In this document: one piece after another, positions 16,155-58,211 of the stretch
Layout of the letters: every line of letters begins with the position of its first letter
Numbering within the stretch: the stretch's first letter is position 1
Assembly: GCA_009692555.1 (NCBI GenBank)
Contig: SHYY01000003.1
Location: 25,937 to 89,936, forward strand
Direction of reading: 5' to 3'
Source: Myxococcales bacterium
GTDB lineage: Bacteria; Myxococcota_A; Polyangia; Palsa-1104; SHYY01
DNA length: 64,000 nucleotides
Position numbers and translations under genes: made by a program
The notes under the pieces: generated by a model
What the model saw: only the letters and a program-made list of their open reading frames with translations
The model's database searches: none
What the model was told of the DNA's origin: nothing

Positions 16155-17438
16155 ATGCACACCCTTTCCATCGCCACCCTGATCACCGTTCTCGCCACCC
16201 CTGCCCTCGGCAACCCGAAGCCGATCACCCGCGACGAGATCCTCCAGAACGCGAAGTGCTCCGTCGGCTTCTCCTACTGGTGGGGCCACGGACGCTACAC
16301 CTGCGAGAAGGCGCAGGCCGGCTCCTGCCTCGGCAGCTGTCCGAACTGCAGCCACAACGGCAGCTACGGCGCCGACTGCTCGGGGATGGTCTCGAAGGCC
16401 TGGCAGGTCCCCGGCCCGTCGCCGCTCGACAGCGACGGCCACCCCTACTCGACGATCAACTACGACACCCAGTCGACCTTCTGGAAGACCATCCCGCGCG
16501 GCCAGGCTCAGCCCGGCGACGCCTTCGTCTACAACACCAACGGCGCCGGCCACATCTTCATCTACGAGAAGGGCGACCCGTGGGGCAGCGCGTGGGCCTA
16601 CGAGTGCAAGGGCTGCTCCTACGGCTGCGTCCACGACCTGCGCACCATCGATGGCGGCTACAAGGCGATCCGCCGCGACGACGTCATGGACGCGCCCGAC
16701 AAGGACGGCGACGGCGTCACCGACAAGGACGACAACTGCCCGAGCGACAAGAACGGCGGCCAGAACGACGAGGACAAGGACGGCAAGGGCGACGAGTGCG
16801 ACCCCGACGACGACGACGACGGCGTCCCCGACGACAAGGACAACTGCGACAAGGTCAAGAACCCCGCGCAGGCCGACCACGACCAGGACAAGCACGGCGA
16901 CGCCTGCGACGACGACGACGACGACGACGGCATCCCCGACCCGAAGGACAACTGCCCGCTGGTCGCCAACAAAACCCAGGTCGACAGCGACAAGGACGGC
17001 CAAGGCGACGTCTGCGACGACGATAGCGGAAACGGGAAGCCTGACGGTGGAAACGGAAACGGAAACGGAAACGGAAACGGAGCCGACGGCGGAACCGGAA
17101 GCGGAAGCGGAAACGGAAACGGAAACGGAAACGGAAACGGAAACGGAAACGGAAACGGAGCCGACGGCGGAACCGGAAGCGGAAACGGAAACGGAAACGG
17201 AGCCGACGGCGGGACCAAGGGCGGCAACAGCACCGACGGTGGCGTCGGAAAACCCGGCGACGGCGGCGACCACACCAACGCGGATCGCCCCGAGAACGAC
17301 CCCCATCACCCGCCCGCGGAAAGCGCCCCTTCGATGATCGGCGGCTGCACCGTCGGTGGCGCCCCCGCCACGCCAGCGCCCGCGCTCGTCGCGTGCGCGC
17401 TGATCGCCCTCACCCTCCTCCGCCGCCGCCGGGGCTGA
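16155..17438 (+). CDS. Secreted NlpC/P60-like domain + thrombospondin type 3 repeats + (GN)n low-complexity region + MYXO-CTERM-type tail
   Basis: It has a signal peptide. [12 protein letters not shown] (Cys) and GAGHIFIYE (His) are NlpC/P60-like. There are about 6 DxDxDGxxDxxDNCP repeats and three GN runs. The C-terminus is GGCTVGG...[13 protein letters not shown]. Confidence 0.85.
17049..17198 (+). repeat. Hexanucleotide microsatellite blocks (GGAAAC)5, (GGAAAC)8, (GGAAAC)3 separated by GGAGCCGACGGCGGAACCGGAAGC-type spacers
   Basis: Counted directly at 17049-17078, 17109-17156 and 17181-17198. They encode (GN)5, (GN)8 and (GN)3 inside the CDS. Confidence 0.9.
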
Positions 17439-17518
17439 TCGGTCCATCTGTGGTCTTCACCCCCACCCCGCCAGAAATAAACACGAATAATTACAGGTCA
17501 TTGAAGCTCAATCGATCG

Positions 17519-17534
17519 TGGCATGTGCGGTGCT
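17519..17534 (+). promoter_or_regulatory. Sigma54-type promoter: TGGCAT-N5-GTGCT
   Basis: Spacing is canonical. GGAGG is at 17547-17551 and the ATG at 17563. 32/50 ungapped upstream positions are identical to the 16071-16120 region. Confidence 0.45.
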
Positions 17535-17562
17535 CGTAGCCCCGATCGGAGGTTTTCCCCCC

Positions 17563-19149
17563 ATGCGCGCGCTCCGCAAGCTGCCCGTGACCGCCCTGTT
17601 CGTCGCCGCCCTCGCCGCCCCCGCCGCTGCCGCCCCGCAACCGATGACCCGCGACGCGATCATCGCCAACGCCAAATGCTCGGTCGGCTTCTCGTACTGG
17701 TGGGGCCACGGCCGCTACACCTGCGCCAACGCGCCCGCCGGCTCCTGCCTCGGAAGCTGCCCGAACTGCACCCACGGCGGCAGCTACGGCGCCGACTGCT
17801 CGGGCATGGTCGCGAAGGCGTGGCAGGTCCCCGGCCCGATCCCGCTCAGCAACGACGGCCACCCCTACTCGACGTTCCACTTCACCGACCAGTCGACCTG
17901 GTGGAGCTCGATCCCCCGCGCGAGCGCCAAGCCCGGCGACGCCTTCACCTACAACACCAAGGGCGCCGGCCACATCATGATCTACGAGAAGGGCGATCCC
18001 TGGGGCAGCTCGTGGGCCTACGAGTGCAAGGGCTGCTCGTACGGCTGCGTCCACAACCTCCGCACCGTCTACTCGAACTACGTCGCCCGTCGCCGCGACA
18101 GCGTCCTCGACGCCGCGGACAAGGACGGCGACGGGATCATCGACCCGAAGGACAACTGCGATCTGGTGAAGAACGCCAGCCAGACCGACACCGACAAGGA
18201 CGGCAAGGGCGACGCCTGCGACGACGACGACGACGGCGACGGCCTCTCCGACGCCAAGGACAACTGCGATCTGGTGAAGAACCCCACCCAGACCGACACC
18301 GACAAGGACAAGCAGGGCGACGCCTGCGACGACGACGACGACAACGACGGCGTCCCCGACGCCAAGGACAACTGCGATCTCGTCGCCAACAAGACCCAGG
18401 TCGATACCGACAAGGACGCCAAGGGCGACGACTGCGACGACGACGACGACAACGACGGCCTCCCCGACGCCAAGGACAACTGCCGCACGGTGAAGAACCC
18501 GGGCCAGGAGGACGCGAACAACAACAAGAAGGGCGACGCCTGCGAGGACGACGACGACAGCGACGGTGTCCTCGACGCCAAGGACAACTGCCGTCTGATC
18601 GTCAACCCCGATCAGGCCGACACCGATCAGGACAAGAAGGGCGACGCCTGCGACGACGACGACGACGGCGACCTCCTCCCTGACGCAAAAGACAACTGCC
18701 CGCTCGCTCCGAACGCCGATCAGGCCGACACCGACAAGGACGGCAGCGGCGACCTGTGCGACGACGATCGCGACGGCGACGGCGCGCAAAACGCGAGCGA
18801 CAACTGCCCCGAAGCGGCGAACGCCGATCAGGAGGACGCCGACGGCGACGCGATCGGCGACCGCTGCGACGACGACACCGACGGGGACGGCAAGACCAAC
18901 GCCGCCGACAACTGCCCGACCATCGCCAACCCCGATCAGGCGGATCGCGACCACGACGGCGCCGGCGACGCCTGCGAGATGGGCGACGACGGCGAGATCA
19001 CGCCGCTCGGCATCCCCGCAGCTCCGCCGGAGGACAGCGGGGCAGTAAGCGGCGGTTGTACCGTCGGGGGCGCCCCTGCCTCGGCCTCGCTGGCGCTGCT
19101 CGCCGCCGCGGCCCTCGCCCTCGCGCTGCGCCGTCGCCGCCACCCGTAG
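17563..19149 (+). CDS. Secreted NlpC/P60-like domain + ~16 thrombospondin type 3 repeats + MYXO-CTERM-type tail (paralog of 16155..17438)
   Basis: The start is set at MRALRKLPVTALFVAALAAPAAA (signal peptide), not at the listed 17518. It shares the Cys-rich N-terminal domain ([21 protein letters not shown]). The C-terminus is SGGCTVGG...ALALALRRRRHP. Confidence 0.85.
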   Translation: MRALRKLPVTALFVAALAAPAAAAPQPMTRDAIIANAKCSVGFSYWWGHGRYTCANAPAGSCLGSCPNCTHGGSYGADCSGMVAKAWQVPGPIPLSNDGHPYSTFHFTDQSTWWSSIPRASAKPGDAFTYNTKGAGHIMIYEKGDPWGSSWAYECKGCSYGCVHNLRTVYSNYVARRRDSVLDAADKDGDGIIDPKDNCDLVKNASQTDTDKDGKGDACDDDDDGDGLSDAKDNCDLVKNPTQTDTDKDKQGDACDDDDDNDGVPDAKDNCDLVANKTQVDTDKDAKGDDCDDDDDNDGLPDAKDNCRTVKNPGQEDANNNKKGDACEDDDDSDGVLDAKDNCRLIVNPDQADTDQDKKGDACDDDDDGDLLPDAKDNCPLAPNADQADTDKDGSGDLCDDDRDGDGAQNASDNCPEAANADQEDADGDAIGDRCDDDTDGDGKTNAADNCPTIANPDQADRDHDGAGDACEMGDDGEITPLGIPAAPPEDSGAVSGGCTVGGAPASASLALLAAAALALALRRRRHP

Positions 19150-22332: not shown

Positions 22333-22753
22333 GTGTGCCCAGCATGAGACTCGGCTTGGAGGTGGAAGTCCTTCGGGGAAGCTGGTCGCAGCGACCCCAA
22401 GCAAACCGCAAGGCGTCCGGCCGCGAGGCCGGCGCTGAAAGAAGCGGGGAGCGAAACCGCGCGTCGACGAACAGAAACCGGATACGAGGCGGCGTCGAGC
22501 AGGGCGAGCGGGCAGATGACCGCGAAGCTCTCGCGACCAAGGCTCGACGACGTAGATCCGGCGACGGTGCGGGGAAGGTCGATGCTCTTACCTGGGGAGA
22601 TCTCGCCTTGCGCTTGAAAGAGCGACGCCCGTCGAAGGACGACGCGTCGTCGACGTGGACCTCGAACAGTTTTTCGATCGGGTGAACCACGACGTGCTGA
22701 TGGGGAAGCTGGCGGCGCGGATCATGGACAAGCGGATGCTGGGGCTGATCCGT
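22333..22753 (+). mobile_element. Degraded group II intron remnant (5' GUGUG + fragments of the intron-encoded reverse transcriptase)
   Basis: It begins GTGTG directly after the terminator T-tract. One frame (22518-22634) gives DREALATKARRRRSGDGAGKVDALTWGDLALRLKERRPS, like the RT-0 region sRENLlaAlkRVrrNkGAaGVDGmT...L..yLke.WP. A shifted frame (22640-22753) gives [39 protein letters not shown], the DxxxFFDxVxHdxLm motif. The intervening RT domains and everything 3' are missing. Confidence 0.6.
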
Positions 22754-22845: not shown

Positions 22846-22873
22846 TTGACCCGCCCGTTCCCCGACGGAGAAT
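22846..22873 (+). promoter_or_regulatory. Candidate sigma70-type promoter for ftsZ (TTGACC-N16-GAGAAT) with upstream A-tract
   Basis: GGGGCAAAAAAATTGACC precedes a 16-nt spacer and GAGAAT. GGAGGG is at ~22883 and the ATG at 22896. Confidence 0.35.
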
Positions 22874-22895
22874 GGGCGAGCGGAGGGTACCTTAC

Positions 22896-24176
<1,281 letters not shown>

Positions 24177-42311: not shown

Positions 42312-42327
42312 CCAAGAGCCGTGCCAG
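42312..42327 (-). promoter_or_regulatory. Sigma54-like promoter CCTGGCAC-N5-TTGGG abutting the 57-bp repeat
   Basis: The motif architecture matches 41622..41637, but the -12 element is only ~14 nt from the ATG. This implies a nearly leaderless transcript or a non-functional site. Confidence 0.3.
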
Positions 42328-42448
42328 GCTCAGTCCCCGAAGACCCAGGGGACGCTTTGGAGCCGCCTGCGGCGGGTCGGTGAGGCTCAGTCCCCGAAGA
42401 CCCAGGGGACGCTTTGGAGCCGCCTGCGGCGGGTCGGTGAGGCTCAGT
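42327..42448. repeat. Perfect 57-bp tandem repeat x2 plus an 8-bp third partial copy
   Basis: 42327-42383 and 42384-42440 are identical (GGCTCAGTCCCCGAAGACCCAGGGGACGCTTTGGAGCCGCCTGCGGCGGGTCGGTGA). 42441-42448 repeats GGCTCAGT, which contains the cytochrome stop codon. Confidence 0.95.
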
Positions 42449-55281: not shown

Positions 55282-56370
55282 ATGCGCCCCGCTGTCCGCT
55301 CGGCCGCAATCGACGCGCTGCGAGGGGTGGCGATCCTGCTCGTGCTTGGCCGGCACATTCCGGAGGTGTTGCAGCTCCCGGCCGTGGTGCACACTGCCCT
55401 GGCCGAGTGGCGGCGGTTCGGCTGGATTGGGGTGGACCTGTTCTTCGTGCTGAGCGGGTTCCTGGTGAGCGGGCTGCTGTTCCGGGAGCATCAGCGGCAC
55501 GGCCGCCTCTTCGCCGGACGTTTTCTGATCCGGCGCGGCTTCAAGATCTACCCCGGATTCTACCTCCTGCTCTTTGCCACCTGGCTGGTTCTCGGCCGAT
55601 GGCTGCCTCCGCACGCGCTGCTCTCGGAGGGGCTGTTCGTGCAGAACTACTGGCTGAGCGCGTGGGCCCACACCTAGTCCCTCGCCATCGAGGAGCACTT
55701 TTACCTCGTGCTGGTCGCGCTGTGCGCGCTGCTGGCTCGGGCGCGCGGGTCGTCCGGCGATCCGTTCCGGGTGATCCCGCGCCTGTTCGTCGTGGTCGGC
55801 GTCTTCGTGCTGCTCCTGCGCGTCGCCAACTACGCCATCGTTCCCTATTCACACACGACGCACCTGATACCGACCCACCTCCGGATCGACGGGCTTCTGT
55901 TCGGCGTGGCCCTCTGCTACGGGTGGACCTACCATCGGGCGTCCGTCGAGGCGCGGCTGCATCGTCGCGGCGCCCTCCTCGCGGCATCCATCGCGCTGCT
56001 GCTGCCGAGTCTGCTACTCGATATCGAGCGGGACTGGGCAGTCAGCACCGTCGGCCTGACCCTCAACTACCTGGGCTTCGGCGGGATCCTGCTGCTCGCG
56101 ATCAGCGCGCCCCCGTCGAGCGGAACGCTGCGGAGGCATCTGGTCGCCGTGGTGGCGCGGATCGGCTTCTACTCCTACTCGATCTACCTGTGGCACCTCC
56201 TGATGCTGGTGTTTGCCGAGATGGTGCGTCGGCACCTGGGCGATGTCGCCACGCTCGGCCTCTACCTCCTCCTCAGCGTCGCCGGCGGCATGGTCCTCGG
56301 CAGGGTGATCGAGGGTCCGTTCCTGGCGCTGCGCGACCGTCTCTTTCCGTCGCGGTCGGGGGTGGATTGA
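55282..56370 (+). pseudogene. Acyltransferase-3 (OafA/YrhL-like) family gene with an in-frame TAG
   Basis: The 55282..55677 ORF ends ...LSAWAHT*. The same frame continues SLAIEEHFYLVLVAL... to 56370. The family motif at this point is H-x-W-S-L-x-x-E-E-x-F-Y, so TAG (55675-55677) replaces the conserved Trp codon TGG. Confidence 0.75.
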
Positions 56371-56494
56371 CGCCCGCTACCGCAGGTGGCCGGGGGCGAC
56401 GATCGGGCCACCACGGCGATCGGGCCAGGGTTATGATTCGGCCGGCCGGCGGGTGCTTGACAGCGGAGGGGGCCCTCTTGCTGGCTCTTGCTCG

Positions 56495-56779
56495 TCACGT
56501 AGTCGTAGTCGTAGTCGTAGTCGTAGTCGTAGTCGTCCCGTCCGCGGCGACGGCAATCGAACTTCCTCCCGCAACAAATTCCTCCTGCCAACCGACCCCC
56601 CTGGCCACAAAGGAGGATGCCCATGCTGGCCTACCAGAAGCTCGACGTCACAGGCCATGGAGTTGCTGACCCGCATCGTGGAGATGCTCACGCGCATGTG
56701 CCGGGGAGGTGATCCCCCGCGCGCGAGTGCCCCTGAATCGACTACGACTACGACTACGACTACGACTACGACTACGTGA
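56495..56779. repeat. Perfect ~40-bp inverted repeat built from hexamers, (GTAGTC)6 ... (GACTAC)6, enclosing a 203-nt loop
   Basis: The left arm 56495-56535 is exactly complementary to the right arm 56739-56779. The loop contains AGGAGG-N6-ATG and a broken four-helix-bundle-protein-like reading frame. Confidence 0.9.
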
Positions 56780-56876
56780 GCGGAGGGACCCCCTTCGCCG
56801 TTAAGCACCCCCGGCCGCCCGGCCGGCTGCCGGGCCGGCTCGACAGGCGCGGTGCGGTTGAGGTAGCCTCTCGGCC

Positions 56877-58211
56877 ATGGGGGACCCCCTGACCCTCGTC
56901 GCGGCCGCCATCGGTGCCCTGCTGGTCGTCGGTGGCGTGTGGTATTTCTGGTCGTCGGCGAAGCGCGCCAAGCGGCACCAGAAGGTGTGGGACCGCACGC
57001 AGCGCCTGGGCCTCACCGAGCCGGTGTCGCTGCATCCGAAGATCCGCGAGGACGTCTGCATCTGCACCGGCGCCTGCGTCGAGGTCTGTCCCGAGAAGGA
57101 CGTCCTCGGGATGATCGATGGCAAGCCGAAGCTGATCAACCCGACGGCGTGCATCGGCCACGGCGAGTGCCTGCGCGCCTGCCCCGTCGAGGCGATCGAC
57201 CTGGTGATCGGCACCGAGAAGCGCGGCGTCGACATCCCGCTGCTCGCCGATCCCGGGTTCCAGACCAATGTCCCGGGGCTCTACATCGCCGGTGAGCTGG
57301 GCGGGATGGGCCTCATCCATAACGCGATCAACCAGGGGCAGCAGGCGATGCGCGCGATCGCGAAATCGAATCCGCCGCGGACGCCGGGGATCCACCAGGT
57401 GCTGATCGTCGGCGCCGGACCGGCGGGGATCGCGGGCGCGCTGCAGGCGAAGGAGGCGGGGCTCGACTTCGCCGTCGTCGACCAGGAGCAGATGGGCGGC
57501 GCGCTGCGCTCCTACCCGCGGCAGAAGGTGGTGATGACCGCCCACGCGCACCTGCCGCTGTTCGGCAAGGTGAAGCTCACGCGCACCACCAAGGAGGCGT
57601 TGCTCGAGCTGTGGGAGTCGGTGTCGAAGAACACCGGGCTGACCGTCGAGGAGGGGGTGAAGGTGCAGGAGATCAAGCGCGAGGAGGACGGGACGTTCAG
57701 CATCGCGACCTCGACGGGGGCGCGGCGCAGCCAGCGGGTGCTGCTGGCGATCGGGCGGCGGGGCTCGCCGCGCAAGCTCGGCGTCCCGGGCGAGGAGCTC
57801 CCCAAGGTCACCTACCGGCTGCTCGAGCCGGAGCAGTACCGCGGAGCACGCTGCCTGGTCGTCGGCGGTGGCGACAGCGCGATCGAGACGGCACTGGCGC
57901 TCTCCCGCGAGCCGGGCACCCCGGTGACGCTGTGCTACCGCGGCGAGAAGTTCGACCGGATCAAGCCGGCGAACCACGATCTGATCGAGGAGGCGCGCGG
58001 GGCGGGGAAGGTCGATGTGCGGATGAAGACCACCCCGACGGTGATCACCGCGGCCGACGTGACGCTCGGTGGCGCGGGCGAGGGGACGATCGCGAACGAG
58101 TGGGTCTTCGTGTGCATCGGCGGCGAGCTGCCGACGGCGTGGCTGGCCAAGATGGGCGTGGCGGTGAAGCGGATGCACGGCGAGGCCCACCCGGCCCTGG
58201 GAGGGCGATGA
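56877..58211 (+). CDS. Membrane-anchored ferredoxin-domain + FAD/NAD(P)-dependent pyridine nucleotide-disulfide oxidoreductase-family protein
   Basis: It has an N-terminal TM (LVAAAIGALLVVGGVWYFW). Two Fe-S-type motifs follow: CICTGACVEVCP and CIGHGECLRACP. Then come VLIVGAGPAGIAGAL and CLVVGGGDSAIE Rossmann motifs. Confidence 0.85.
   Translation: MGDPLTLVAAAIGALLVVGGVWYFWSSAKRAKRHQKVWDRTQRLGLTEPVSLHPKIREDVCICTGACVEVCPEKDVLGMIDGKPKLINPTACIGHGECLRACPVEAIDLVIGTEKRGVDIPLLADPGFQTNVPGLYIAGELGGMGLIHNAINQGQQAMRAIAKSNPPRTPGIHQVLIVGAGPAGIAGALQAKEAGLDFAVVDQEQMGGALRSYPRQKVVMTAHAHLPLFGKVKLTRTTKEALLELWESVSKNTGLTVEEGVKVQEIKREEDGTFSIATSTGARRSQRVLLAIGRRGSPRKLGVPGEELPKVTYRLLEPEQYRGARCLVVGGGDSAIETALALSREPGTPVTLCYRGEKFDRIKPANHDLIEEARGAGKVDVRMKTTPTVITAADVTLGGAGEGTIANEWVFVCIGGELPTAWLAKMGVAVKRMHGEAHPALGGR

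Follow-up and report, generated by a model that had tools for sequence, protein, structure and literature searches.

A probable relic of a dispersed hairpin cassette carrying a four-helix-bundle gene, located between protein-coding genes of a Myxococcales bacterium

Between two protein-coding genes of a Myxococcales bacterium known from a metagenome-assembled genome (MAG; locus tag EXR72, assembly GCA_009692555.1), a broken gene lies in the loop of a long hairpin whose arms are built from hexamer repeats. We analysed this element within a stretch of 64,000 nucleotides (contig SHYY01000003.1, positions 25,937 to 89,936; hereafter the window), and consider it probable that it represents a dispersed selfish cassette, resembling the intervening sequences (IVSs) of 23S rRNA genes and residing outside rRNA, in the form of a dead copy with internal deletions. 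By sequence comparison, the cargo is a four-helix-bundle gene of the PF05635 / S23p / 23S rRNA IVS protein family, and the comparison of copies (predicted proteins from other loci are numbered P0121 to P0130) shows the window element to be a non-autonomous member of a cassette that is dispersed and was recently amplified in this genome. A preliminary description, made from the letters of the window alone, had proposed a miniaturised, frame-broken four-helix-bundle gene in an IVS-like stem; support for this proposal comes via the sister copies P0126 and P0127, not from the window alone.

The window element and the identity of its cargo

The element consists of the following parts (positions in the window):

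56449 to 56815, plus strand (the sense strand of the relic gene): whole element, a palindromic cassette of about 367 nt, limits +/- 3 nt
56449 to 56477: left outer arm, GCGGGTGCTTGACAGCGGAGGGGGCCCTC; its imperfect partner is 56783-56815 (complementarity of 85% over 40 nt)
56478 to 56494: 17 nt found on the left only, TTGCTGGCTCTTGCTCG, which the alignment of both arms shows as a bulge or internal loop of the stem
56495 to 56535: left perfect arm, TCAC(GTAGTC)6G, from the inverted-repeat search and Tandem Repeats Finder (TRF)
56536 to 56609, plus strand: conserved 74-nt leader, from the left arm to the ribosome-binding site
56610 to 56649, plus strand: ribosome-binding site AAGGAGG (56610-56616) and N-terminal relic MPMLAYQKLDV (56617-56649)
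56650, plus strand: deletion junction and frameshift, with about 75 codons gone relative to the reconstructed gene
56651 to 56738, plus strand: C-terminal relic QAMELLTRIVEMLTRMCRGGDPPRASAPES (last bundle helix and tail), in the +1 frame, which runs through the right arm to a TGA at 56777-56779
56739 to 56779: right perfect arm, C(GACTAC)6GTGA, from the inverted-repeat search and TRF, its junction reproduced in Logan contig L001
56780 to 56815: right outer arm, GCGGAGGGACCCCCTTCGCCGTTAAGCACCCCCGGC, kept in P0122 (AEGPPSPLSTPG) and P0128 (VSGGTPFSVKHPG), beyond which the flanks diverge

The inverted-repeat search returned two arms of 41 nt each (56495-56535 and 56739-56779) that are 100% complementary around a 203-nt loop, and TRF resolved period-6 arrays at 56498-56536 (6.5 copies, 100%) and 56739-56776 (6.3 copies, 100%); the preliminary description had placed the 41-bp repeat, both hexamer arrays and the loop at the correct coordinates. 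In strength it far exceeds every other inverted repeat of the 64-kb window, and (GTAGTC)3 occurs nowhere else in the window, none being expected from 100 shuffles. Outer pairing enlarges the palindrome further (56439-56477 with 56783-56821, 85% complementary). The predicted fold of the 431-nt region reaches -251 kcal/mol on the plus strand, as compared with -179 +/- 6 in shuffled sequences (z -11.4), and the minus strand gives a z of -9.9.

The limits of the element were set where the match between the window and gene calls from other copies breaks off, on the left by P0123 and on the right by P0122 and P0128, which yields the putative termini GCGGGTGCTT... (left) and ...AAGCACCCCCGGC (right). 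The left outer arm is identical or nearly so in translation in P0123, P0124, P0125 and P0127, and the 17-nt bulge is kept in P0124, P0125 and P0127 (where it reads LAGSCSS or LLLALAR) as well as on the minus strand in P0123 (DEQEPARG). Present in these same four is the leader, including in the copy without any gene, and its two CCUCC motifs (56565-56571 and 56581-56587) pair with the GGAGG of the ribosome-binding site in the minimum-free-energy structure.

Within the loop, AGGAGG (56611-56616) is followed after 6 nt by an ATG (56623-56625) that opens MLAYQKLDV, and the neighbouring +1 frame reads QAMELLTRIVEMLTRM from 56651, both just as first described; an alternative ATG slightly upstream (56617) extends the former peptide to MPMLAYQKLDV. 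When searched against Pfam, NCBIfam and PDB (E <= 10), the loop peptides, including a frameshift-corrected join and a version with an inserted W, produced no four-helix-bundle match, the searches being either empty or limited to generic helical-repeat proteins; a tetratricopeptide-repeat-like reading of the loop peptide was dropped. A tblastn search of the window with four-helix-bundle consensus sequences found no intact gene, and by curated cutoffs the window ORF (open reading frame) is a member of neither PF05635 nor TIGR02436 but a relic only. The window alone is insufficient to identify the content of the loop by sequence, and its identity comes via the sister copies.

Of these, P0126 reads MPLLADQKLDVYRRAIEFLALASQIATSAPRGNSVLAEELKRAALSIPWNIAEE-DTPRQAMELLTRIVEMLTRR... 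(in outline MPLLADQKLDV...NIAEE...QAMELLTRIVEMLTRR) and matches positions 1-48 of the 106 in PF05635 (E 7.8e-6), and P0127, which contains ...YIAVGAGRFGAPDGARFYSIARGSAMECMAIVDAFAVLQLAEEDTRRHAMELLTRIVEMLTRM..., matches positions 46-105 of 106 (E 8.9e-7) and scores above the TIGR02436 cutoff (28.5 bits versus 24). Both carry the NCBI name 'four helix bundle protein'. Joining the two halves at NIAEG gave 126 residues, a reconstruction and not an observed protein, which matches PF05635 over positions 1-105 with 69 bits (cutoff 33.8; E 4.9e-19) and the solved Xanthomonas protein XCC0516 (2GSC) with an E of 2.4e-12. Profile searches, the check that the preliminary description had named, were thus empty for the loop peptides directly and positive for the sister copies and their join.

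The window peptides map onto both ends of this joined gene. MPMLAYQKLDV is identical in 9 of 11 positions to residues 1-11 of P0126, the start of its PF05635 match, and the translation of 56651-56767 shows 92-95% identity with the C-termini of P0126 and P0127, which align up to PF05635 positions 105/106 and with the last helix of 2GSC; the two peptides had thus been placed correctly, before any database search, in the N-terminal and the C-terminal helix. It follows from this mapping that the window copy lost about 75 codons, together with its reading frame, at 56650: relative to P0126, P0127 and the 126-residue join, helix 1 after its first turn, helix 2 and helix 3 are missing there, and in the P0123 copy the gene continues to the right of the position equivalent to 56649. 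A 21-nt 'tandem duplication' at 56658-56697, considered as counter-evidence to a C-terminal helix, was rejected as such: it is present in all copies and corresponds to the heptad periodicity of the helix.

Copies elsewhere in the genome

Protein searches uncovered nine further copies. Together with the window copy, the ten loci lie on nine contigs (of 94.6, 74.1, 45.1, 42.4, 30.4, 21.8, 18.5, 16.1 and 12.0 kb, the second of which holds two copies), with unrelated flanks and all in one MAG, the sister gene calls all bearing MSP accessions or EXR72 locus tags. The proteins of this assembly noted in the analysis are MSP58985.1, MSP59065.1, MSP59087.1, MSP59956.1, MSP60048.1, MSP61342.1, MSP62013.1, MSP62359.1, MSP62634.1 and MSP63316.1. 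The independent mobility of stem plus cargo, raised earlier as a possibility, is supported by this presence of at least 10 copies with different flanks in a single genome. When the corrected loop peptide was run through a word-indexed protein search, one cluster came up, comprising P0121 and P0122, short 'hypothetical proteins' from other contigs that read MELLTRIVEMLTRMCRR.DPPRASAPES followed by a T-run; P0121 is cut at the contig end, and P0122 goes on into the right outer arm. A six-frame query with the element added P0123 (a minus-strand read-through of the left half) and P0124/P0130 (a YfhO gene whose frame extends into a copy), and five further gene calls, P0125-P0129, came from an exhaustive HMMER search whose query was the 108-codon frame running through the element.

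What remains of the cargo differs from copy to copy:

P0125: cargo absent, with left arm and leader running straight into the right arm
P0127: N-terminal half gone
P0126: helix 3 gone
P0123: at least 34 N-terminal codons retained
P0124/P0130: helices 3-4 retained, in a shifted frame
Window copy: codons 1-11 and the last helix only

Judged by their predicted products, different copies are thus shown to carry independent internal deletions. The entries for P0123 and P0124/P0130 come from a purpose-written codon-compatibility test, which asks if two given peptides could both be encoded by one DNA, be it in separate frames or on the two strands. The N-terminus of P0123, read antisense, is compatible with residues 1-34 of P0126 over 102 nt, versus at most 39 nt in 60 shuffles, and the +1 frame of P0124 is compatible with IARGSAMECMAIVDAFAVLQLAE of P0127 over 69 nt, versus at most 30 nt in shuffles.

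Translated in three frames and on either strand, arms and leader are near-identical across copies; hardly any change is seen in the outer arms, the 17-nt bulge or the 74-nt leader where these are visible, a conservation that is partly an ascertainment effect, since detection needed an arm or the C-terminal helix. The number of hexamer units per arm ranges from 4 to 6 (6/6 in the window copy, 4/4 in P0125 and 4/5 in P0127), and the orientation relative to neighbouring genes varies between copies (P0123 versus P0124). The arms of the window copy are pure period-6 repeats (100%), as had been described; what had seemed odd in them proved to be a trait shared by the family.

The sister copies also bear on two other explanations. 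It is very improbable that the loop holds a live small gene, be it a functional peptide of 29-31 residues made from the strong ribosome-binding site or a real protein encoded by the 108-codon frame: AAGGAGG and the following ATG are intact and frame 2 is open through the whole element, but start codons are gone in several copies, with start or frame lost in P0123 (H->Q), P0125 and P0127; moreover, the 31-residue product would consist of 11 residues of a known fold plus out-of-frame sequence, and the 108-codon frame is made up of arm-encoded SR and T runs. We infer that the 31-codon ORF from ATG 56617 is functionless. Next to negligible is the chance that the element is an assembly artefact in which a microsatellite gave rise to a chimeric or fold-back join. 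The source is indeed a MAG, and repeat arrays do break assemblies, as evident from contig L001, which starts in an array, and from the truncation of P0121; however, the element is internal to the 94.6-kb contig, an independent assembly of the same reads (L001, from SRR8561391), which begins inside the right array, reproduces the junction with the outer arm, and nine other loci carry the same arms, leader and relic, the number of units differing among them.

Genomic setting, proposed mechanism and related elements

The element occupies a 506-nt spacer whose flanking genes are both on the plus strand, co-oriented with the relic gene:

55282 to 56370, plus strand: upstream acyltransferase_3 gene, ending 78 nt before the element
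56877 to 58211, plus strand: downstream gene for a ferredoxin-domain FAD/NAD oxidoreductase (Pyr_redox/Fer4), starting 61 nt after the element

The former consists of two ORFs (55282-55677 and 55708-56370), and the break near 55675 could be an in-frame stop, a pseudogene or a sequencing error; the latter encodes MSP58985.1 of the Myxococcales bacterium MAG, on the 94.6-kb contig. Consensus scans of the element region found no promoter-like or terminator-like sites, no Rfam family matches at the element, and neither a transposase nor a reverse transcriptase gene lies beside it; the window contains no second copy or partner element. It also contains no rRNA at Rfam gathering thresholds, nor is there any around the element at E <= 10, in agreement with the earlier statement that the element is far from any rRNA. 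Elsewhere in the window, there are a perfect 57-nt tandem repeat (42326-42448; 2.2 copies, 100% identity), long D-rich coding repeats of 108 nt that look thrombospondin-type-3-like by eye (16695-19000), and a (GGAAAC)x25 array (17049-17201).

As reconstructed from the sister copies, the intact form of the cassette would comprise a PF05635 gene of about 120 codons, preceded by a leader and ribosome-binding site of its own; long terminal inverted repeats would surround it, their inner portion consisting of tandem hexamers. Such an architecture would be that of ORF-bearing 23S rRNA IVSs, yet situated between protein-coding genes and in at least 10 copies. The cassette would spread, or would recently have spread, as a unit, with the window copy movable only in trans. 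Because the cassette is co-oriented with both neighbours and is without promoter-like or terminator-like sites, read-through transcription is probable. A stem of some 75-90 bp, including 41 perfect pairs, would form in the transcript, and RNase III would cut out, or cut across, this stem as it does in rRNA IVSs, thereby separating the upstream and downstream messages. A stem built from repeats can pair in a shifted register when its arrays differ in length.

Classical IVSs are inserted in the 23S rRNA gene, at helix 25 or helix 45. That of Coxiella measures 428 nt, has a 28-bp terminal stem and variable-number tandem heptamers, carries in its loop an S23p ORF under reductive evolution, and is excised by RNase III; the hypotheses on record for the origin of IVSs are that they are remnants of transposition, or mobile elements whose ORF serves mobility (PMC4990558). 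Like the ORF-bearing IVSs of Coxiella burnetii, Leptospira and Brucella (370-450 nt), the window element has complementary termini that form a long stem and, in the loop, a PF05635 ORF (here a relic, recognised via the sister copies) that is sense to the host transcript and decays by deletions; it shares with the Coxiella IVS the variable-number short tandem repeats in the 5' part, heptamers there and hexamers here. Unlike an IVS, it resides not in 23S rRNA but between two protein-coding genes, it has at least 10 dispersed copies per genome rather than one per rrl gene, and its stem is much longer and perfect over 41 bp.

Hairpin-RNA MITEs (miniature inverted-repeat transposable elements), such as the Correia elements of Neisseria and the enterobacterial repetitive intergenic consensus (ERIC) sequences, are transcribed together with the genes next to them, and RNase III acts on the Correia transcripts. 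The window element resembles them in being short, multi-copy and intergenic, with terminal inverted repeats and no transposase, and differs in deriving from a cassette with a non-transposase cargo gene, in the tandem hexamer array of its arms, and in that neither a clear target-site duplication at the window copy nor, within 64 kb, an autonomous partner was found for it. The element might accordingly be an ordinary MITE, non-autonomous and recognised at its GC(C)GGGGTGCTT termini by a transposase encoded elsewhere, with the gene as a passenger and the RNA hairpin incidental. We regard this as doubtful, although a good deal speaks for it: terminal inverted repeats, a size of about 370 nt, at least 10 copies at unrelated sites, no encoded transposase, deletion derivatives down to a bare hairpin, and a 7-nt CCGGCCG on both flanks of the window element. 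However, no autonomous partner with such termini exists in the 64 kb, and the CCGGCCG, checked in the window copy only, is low-complexity and offset by 3 nt on the right, short GC-only matches being expected by chance at 71% GC. Furthermore, the cargo-in-stem layout recurs with quite different arms around unrelated four-helix-bundle genes in other phyla, which argues that the gene is tied to the stem and is not a chance passenger. The element is not filed as a MITE here, no clear target duplication or autonomous partner having been found; by analogy, it would behave as an ORF-bearing rRNA IVS that is dispersed as a MITE would be.

It is also unlikely that the host has domesticated the hairpin as a structural RNA or DNA element, to serve between the acyltransferase and oxidoreductase genes as an mRNA processing site, a 3'-end stabiliser or a terminator, with the relic gene irrelevant. 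Arms and leader do persist as the cargo decays, arm repeat numbers are equal in two copies (6/6 and 4/4), and cargo-less hexamer-repeat hairpins occur between genes in other high-GC contigs (L074 and L017, described below). However, the arms of another copy are unequal (4/5), copies are found in both orientations relative to their neighbours, arm conservation owes something to ascertainment, and the element is not conserved at its locus: relatives of the oxidoreductase gene (65-73% identity) have other neighbours and only 18-88 nt upstream, with no such element.

The Avd proteins of diversity-generating retroelements (DGRs) have been grouped with PF05635-like 23S rRNA IVS proteins (PMC10053308). 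They share the homologous four-helix-bundle fold with the cargo described here, whereas the window element has no adjacent reverse transcriptase, its neighbours being an acyltransferase and an oxidoreductase gene. To our knowledge, Avd genes do not occur in hairpin loops. A retron or DGR reading was rejected, there being no adjacent reverse transcriptase gene; no search was made for a template/variable repeat pair. The only retroelement signal, a group II intron RNA fragment, lies 34 kb off: a strong, full-length match to RF02001 (group II intron D1-D4-3; 118 bits) at 22417-22586 on the plus strand, flanked by the gene of a Big_2 repeat protein and by ftsZ (22872-24176), with no reverse-transcriptase ORF or further intron domain match between 21.5 and 26 kb.

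Several points weigh against reading the window element as a dead copy of an IVS-like cassette. DNA was seen for the window copy alone, the evidence from sister copies consisting of predicted proteins; no intact master copy was seen among the ten loci, and the family is known from one MAG, being absent from one Joint Genome Institute (JGI) metagenome pattern scan and from viral contigs. The relatives of the oxidoreductase gene are too rearranged upstream, and not syntenic, to supply an empty site. As for the RNA, mismatches in the outer arms are strand-neutral (two would be G-U pairs on either strand), and read-through with RNase III cleavage is argued from the specificity of RNase III and the precedent of IVSs.

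Repeat hairpins and four-helix-bundle genes in other lineages

A scan of species-representative genomes for (GTAGTC)4 found at least 66 loci; among the matches listed, all are single arrays without inverted pairs, nearly all lie within long open frames (as DY, T, V or SR runs), and the source MAG does not appear. A JGI metagenome scan with the outer-arm consensus and two scans of viral contigs gave no match, and a metagenome scan for TCAC(GTAGTC)3 returned only coding arrays and an unrelated hairpin with the opposite arm order. This hairpin, at 10640-10780 of L074 (L071 has an identical sequence), is flanked by convergent kinase and carbamate-kinase-like genes on a metagenome contig with 71% GC, and consists of about 70 bp, (GACTAC)7-GACCTATCAC-(GTAGTC)8, extended by GATCAC/GTGGTC repeats. 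It shares the hexamer with the window element, with the arm order reversed and a tiny loop, and its outer pairs are G-U on one strand only. Imperfect hexamer-periodic inverted repeats were seen in other Myxococcota MAGs, at 4544-4769 of L017 (93-nt arms, 83% complementarity) and at 1857-1967 of L061 (47-nt arms, 77% complementarity), and hexamer-repeat hairpins may be common in Myxococcota. In the literature searched, of which coverage was incomplete and early Leptospira papers lay outside, we found descriptions neither of dispersed non-rRNA IVS-like cassettes nor of a link between four-helix-bundle genes and inverted tandem-repeat arms.

A tblastn search of 72,556 plasmids with the reconstructed protein and a Nostoc homologue returned about 30 four-helix-bundle genes, 12 of which were examined (from Gemmatirosa, Azospirillum and ten cyanobacteria). 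Nine of the 12 lie within an inverted repeat whose score exceeds that of all 200 shuffles; for one the result is borderline, and the remaining two lack such a repeat. Their arms are period-7 or period-8 tandem repeats, such as (GAGTCAG)n, (GGGCAGGA)n and (GGTGACA)n, and are thus analogous to the hexamer arms of the EXR72 family. As a control, 58 genes in 50 kb of pNPUN02 were scored in the same way: the four-helix-bundle gene and a ParG-like gene reached 40 and 50, and the rest at most 23. The latter locus (L091, 24540-25051, Nostoc punctiforme pNPUN02) is a ParG/ribbon-helix-helix-like gene inside a 40-nt AT-rich inverted repeat that is 85% complementary and non-tandem. From these 12 plasmid genes, mostly from cyanobacteria, in which heptamer repeats are common, a repeat-built stem looks like a general feature around four-helix-bundle genes.

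Several of the cassettes lie inside operons in sense orientation, namely between cas10/cmr2 and cmr3 and between cas6 and cas4. The four-helix-bundle genes within CRISPR-Cas operons are at 683-1039 of L081, 598-957 of L085 and 589-957 of L086; tandem-repeat arms surround those of L081 and L086, and none surround that of L085. An association of '23S rRNA IVP' with CRISPR has been reported (PMC10910872), which might reflect insertion of the cassette. In Xanthomonas campestris ATCC 33913, (GGGAATC)4 at about 622956-622983 overlaps the start of XCC0516, 6 nt from bccP, and about 70 convergent GGGAATC pairs with spacers of 21-67 nt are on record, including in the operon spacers groES|groEL, atpA|atpG and gltD|gltB (PMC4692102, S2 Table A). 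Like the arms of the window element, these pairs and the tandem heptamers of cyanobacteria are short tandem repeats, those of Xanthomonas being arranged in convergent pairs in operon spacers; unlike them, they have been described as G-quadruplex-forming simple repeats and not as arms of gene cassettes, their units are 7-8 nt long and purine-rich rather than 6 nt, and the arms share no sequence similarity. The Xanthomonas pairs may be cargo-less relatives or decayed arms, which we offer as a lead and not as a result.

Tentatively, and with somewhat more doubt than confidence, we propose that S23p genes are the cargo of a widespread, hitherto unrecognised class of mobile hairpin cassettes, which have inverted arms of 6-8-nt tandem repeats, insert into transcribed DNA, are tolerated there because RNase III takes them out of the transcripts, and decay to ORF-less hairpins. 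The oligomeric four-helix-bundle protein might recognise its own repeated stem. If this proposal is true, the classical 23S rRNA IVS would be merely the best-known landing site, with operon spacers, cas operons and rRNA genes all serving as targets; the inverted GGGAATC pairs of Xanthomonas and some heptamer arrays of cyanobacteria would be dead arms, and the link of '23S rRNA IVP' to CRISPR would reflect insertion and not function.

Since about 1990 it has been an open question where rRNA IVSs come from, how they move and what their four-helix-bundle protein does. At least 10 recent non-rRNA copies at varied stages of decay provide direct material on origin and mobility, and 'intervening sequences' seem able to spread outside rRNA. 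A common cassette architecture is suggested across Cyanobacteria, Azospirillum (Alphaproteobacteria) and Gemmatirosa (Gemmatimonadota), and a Xanthomonas array abuts such a gene; this architecture could account for several unexplained classes of repeats, as well as for the presence of four-helix-bundle genes in cas and housekeeping operons.

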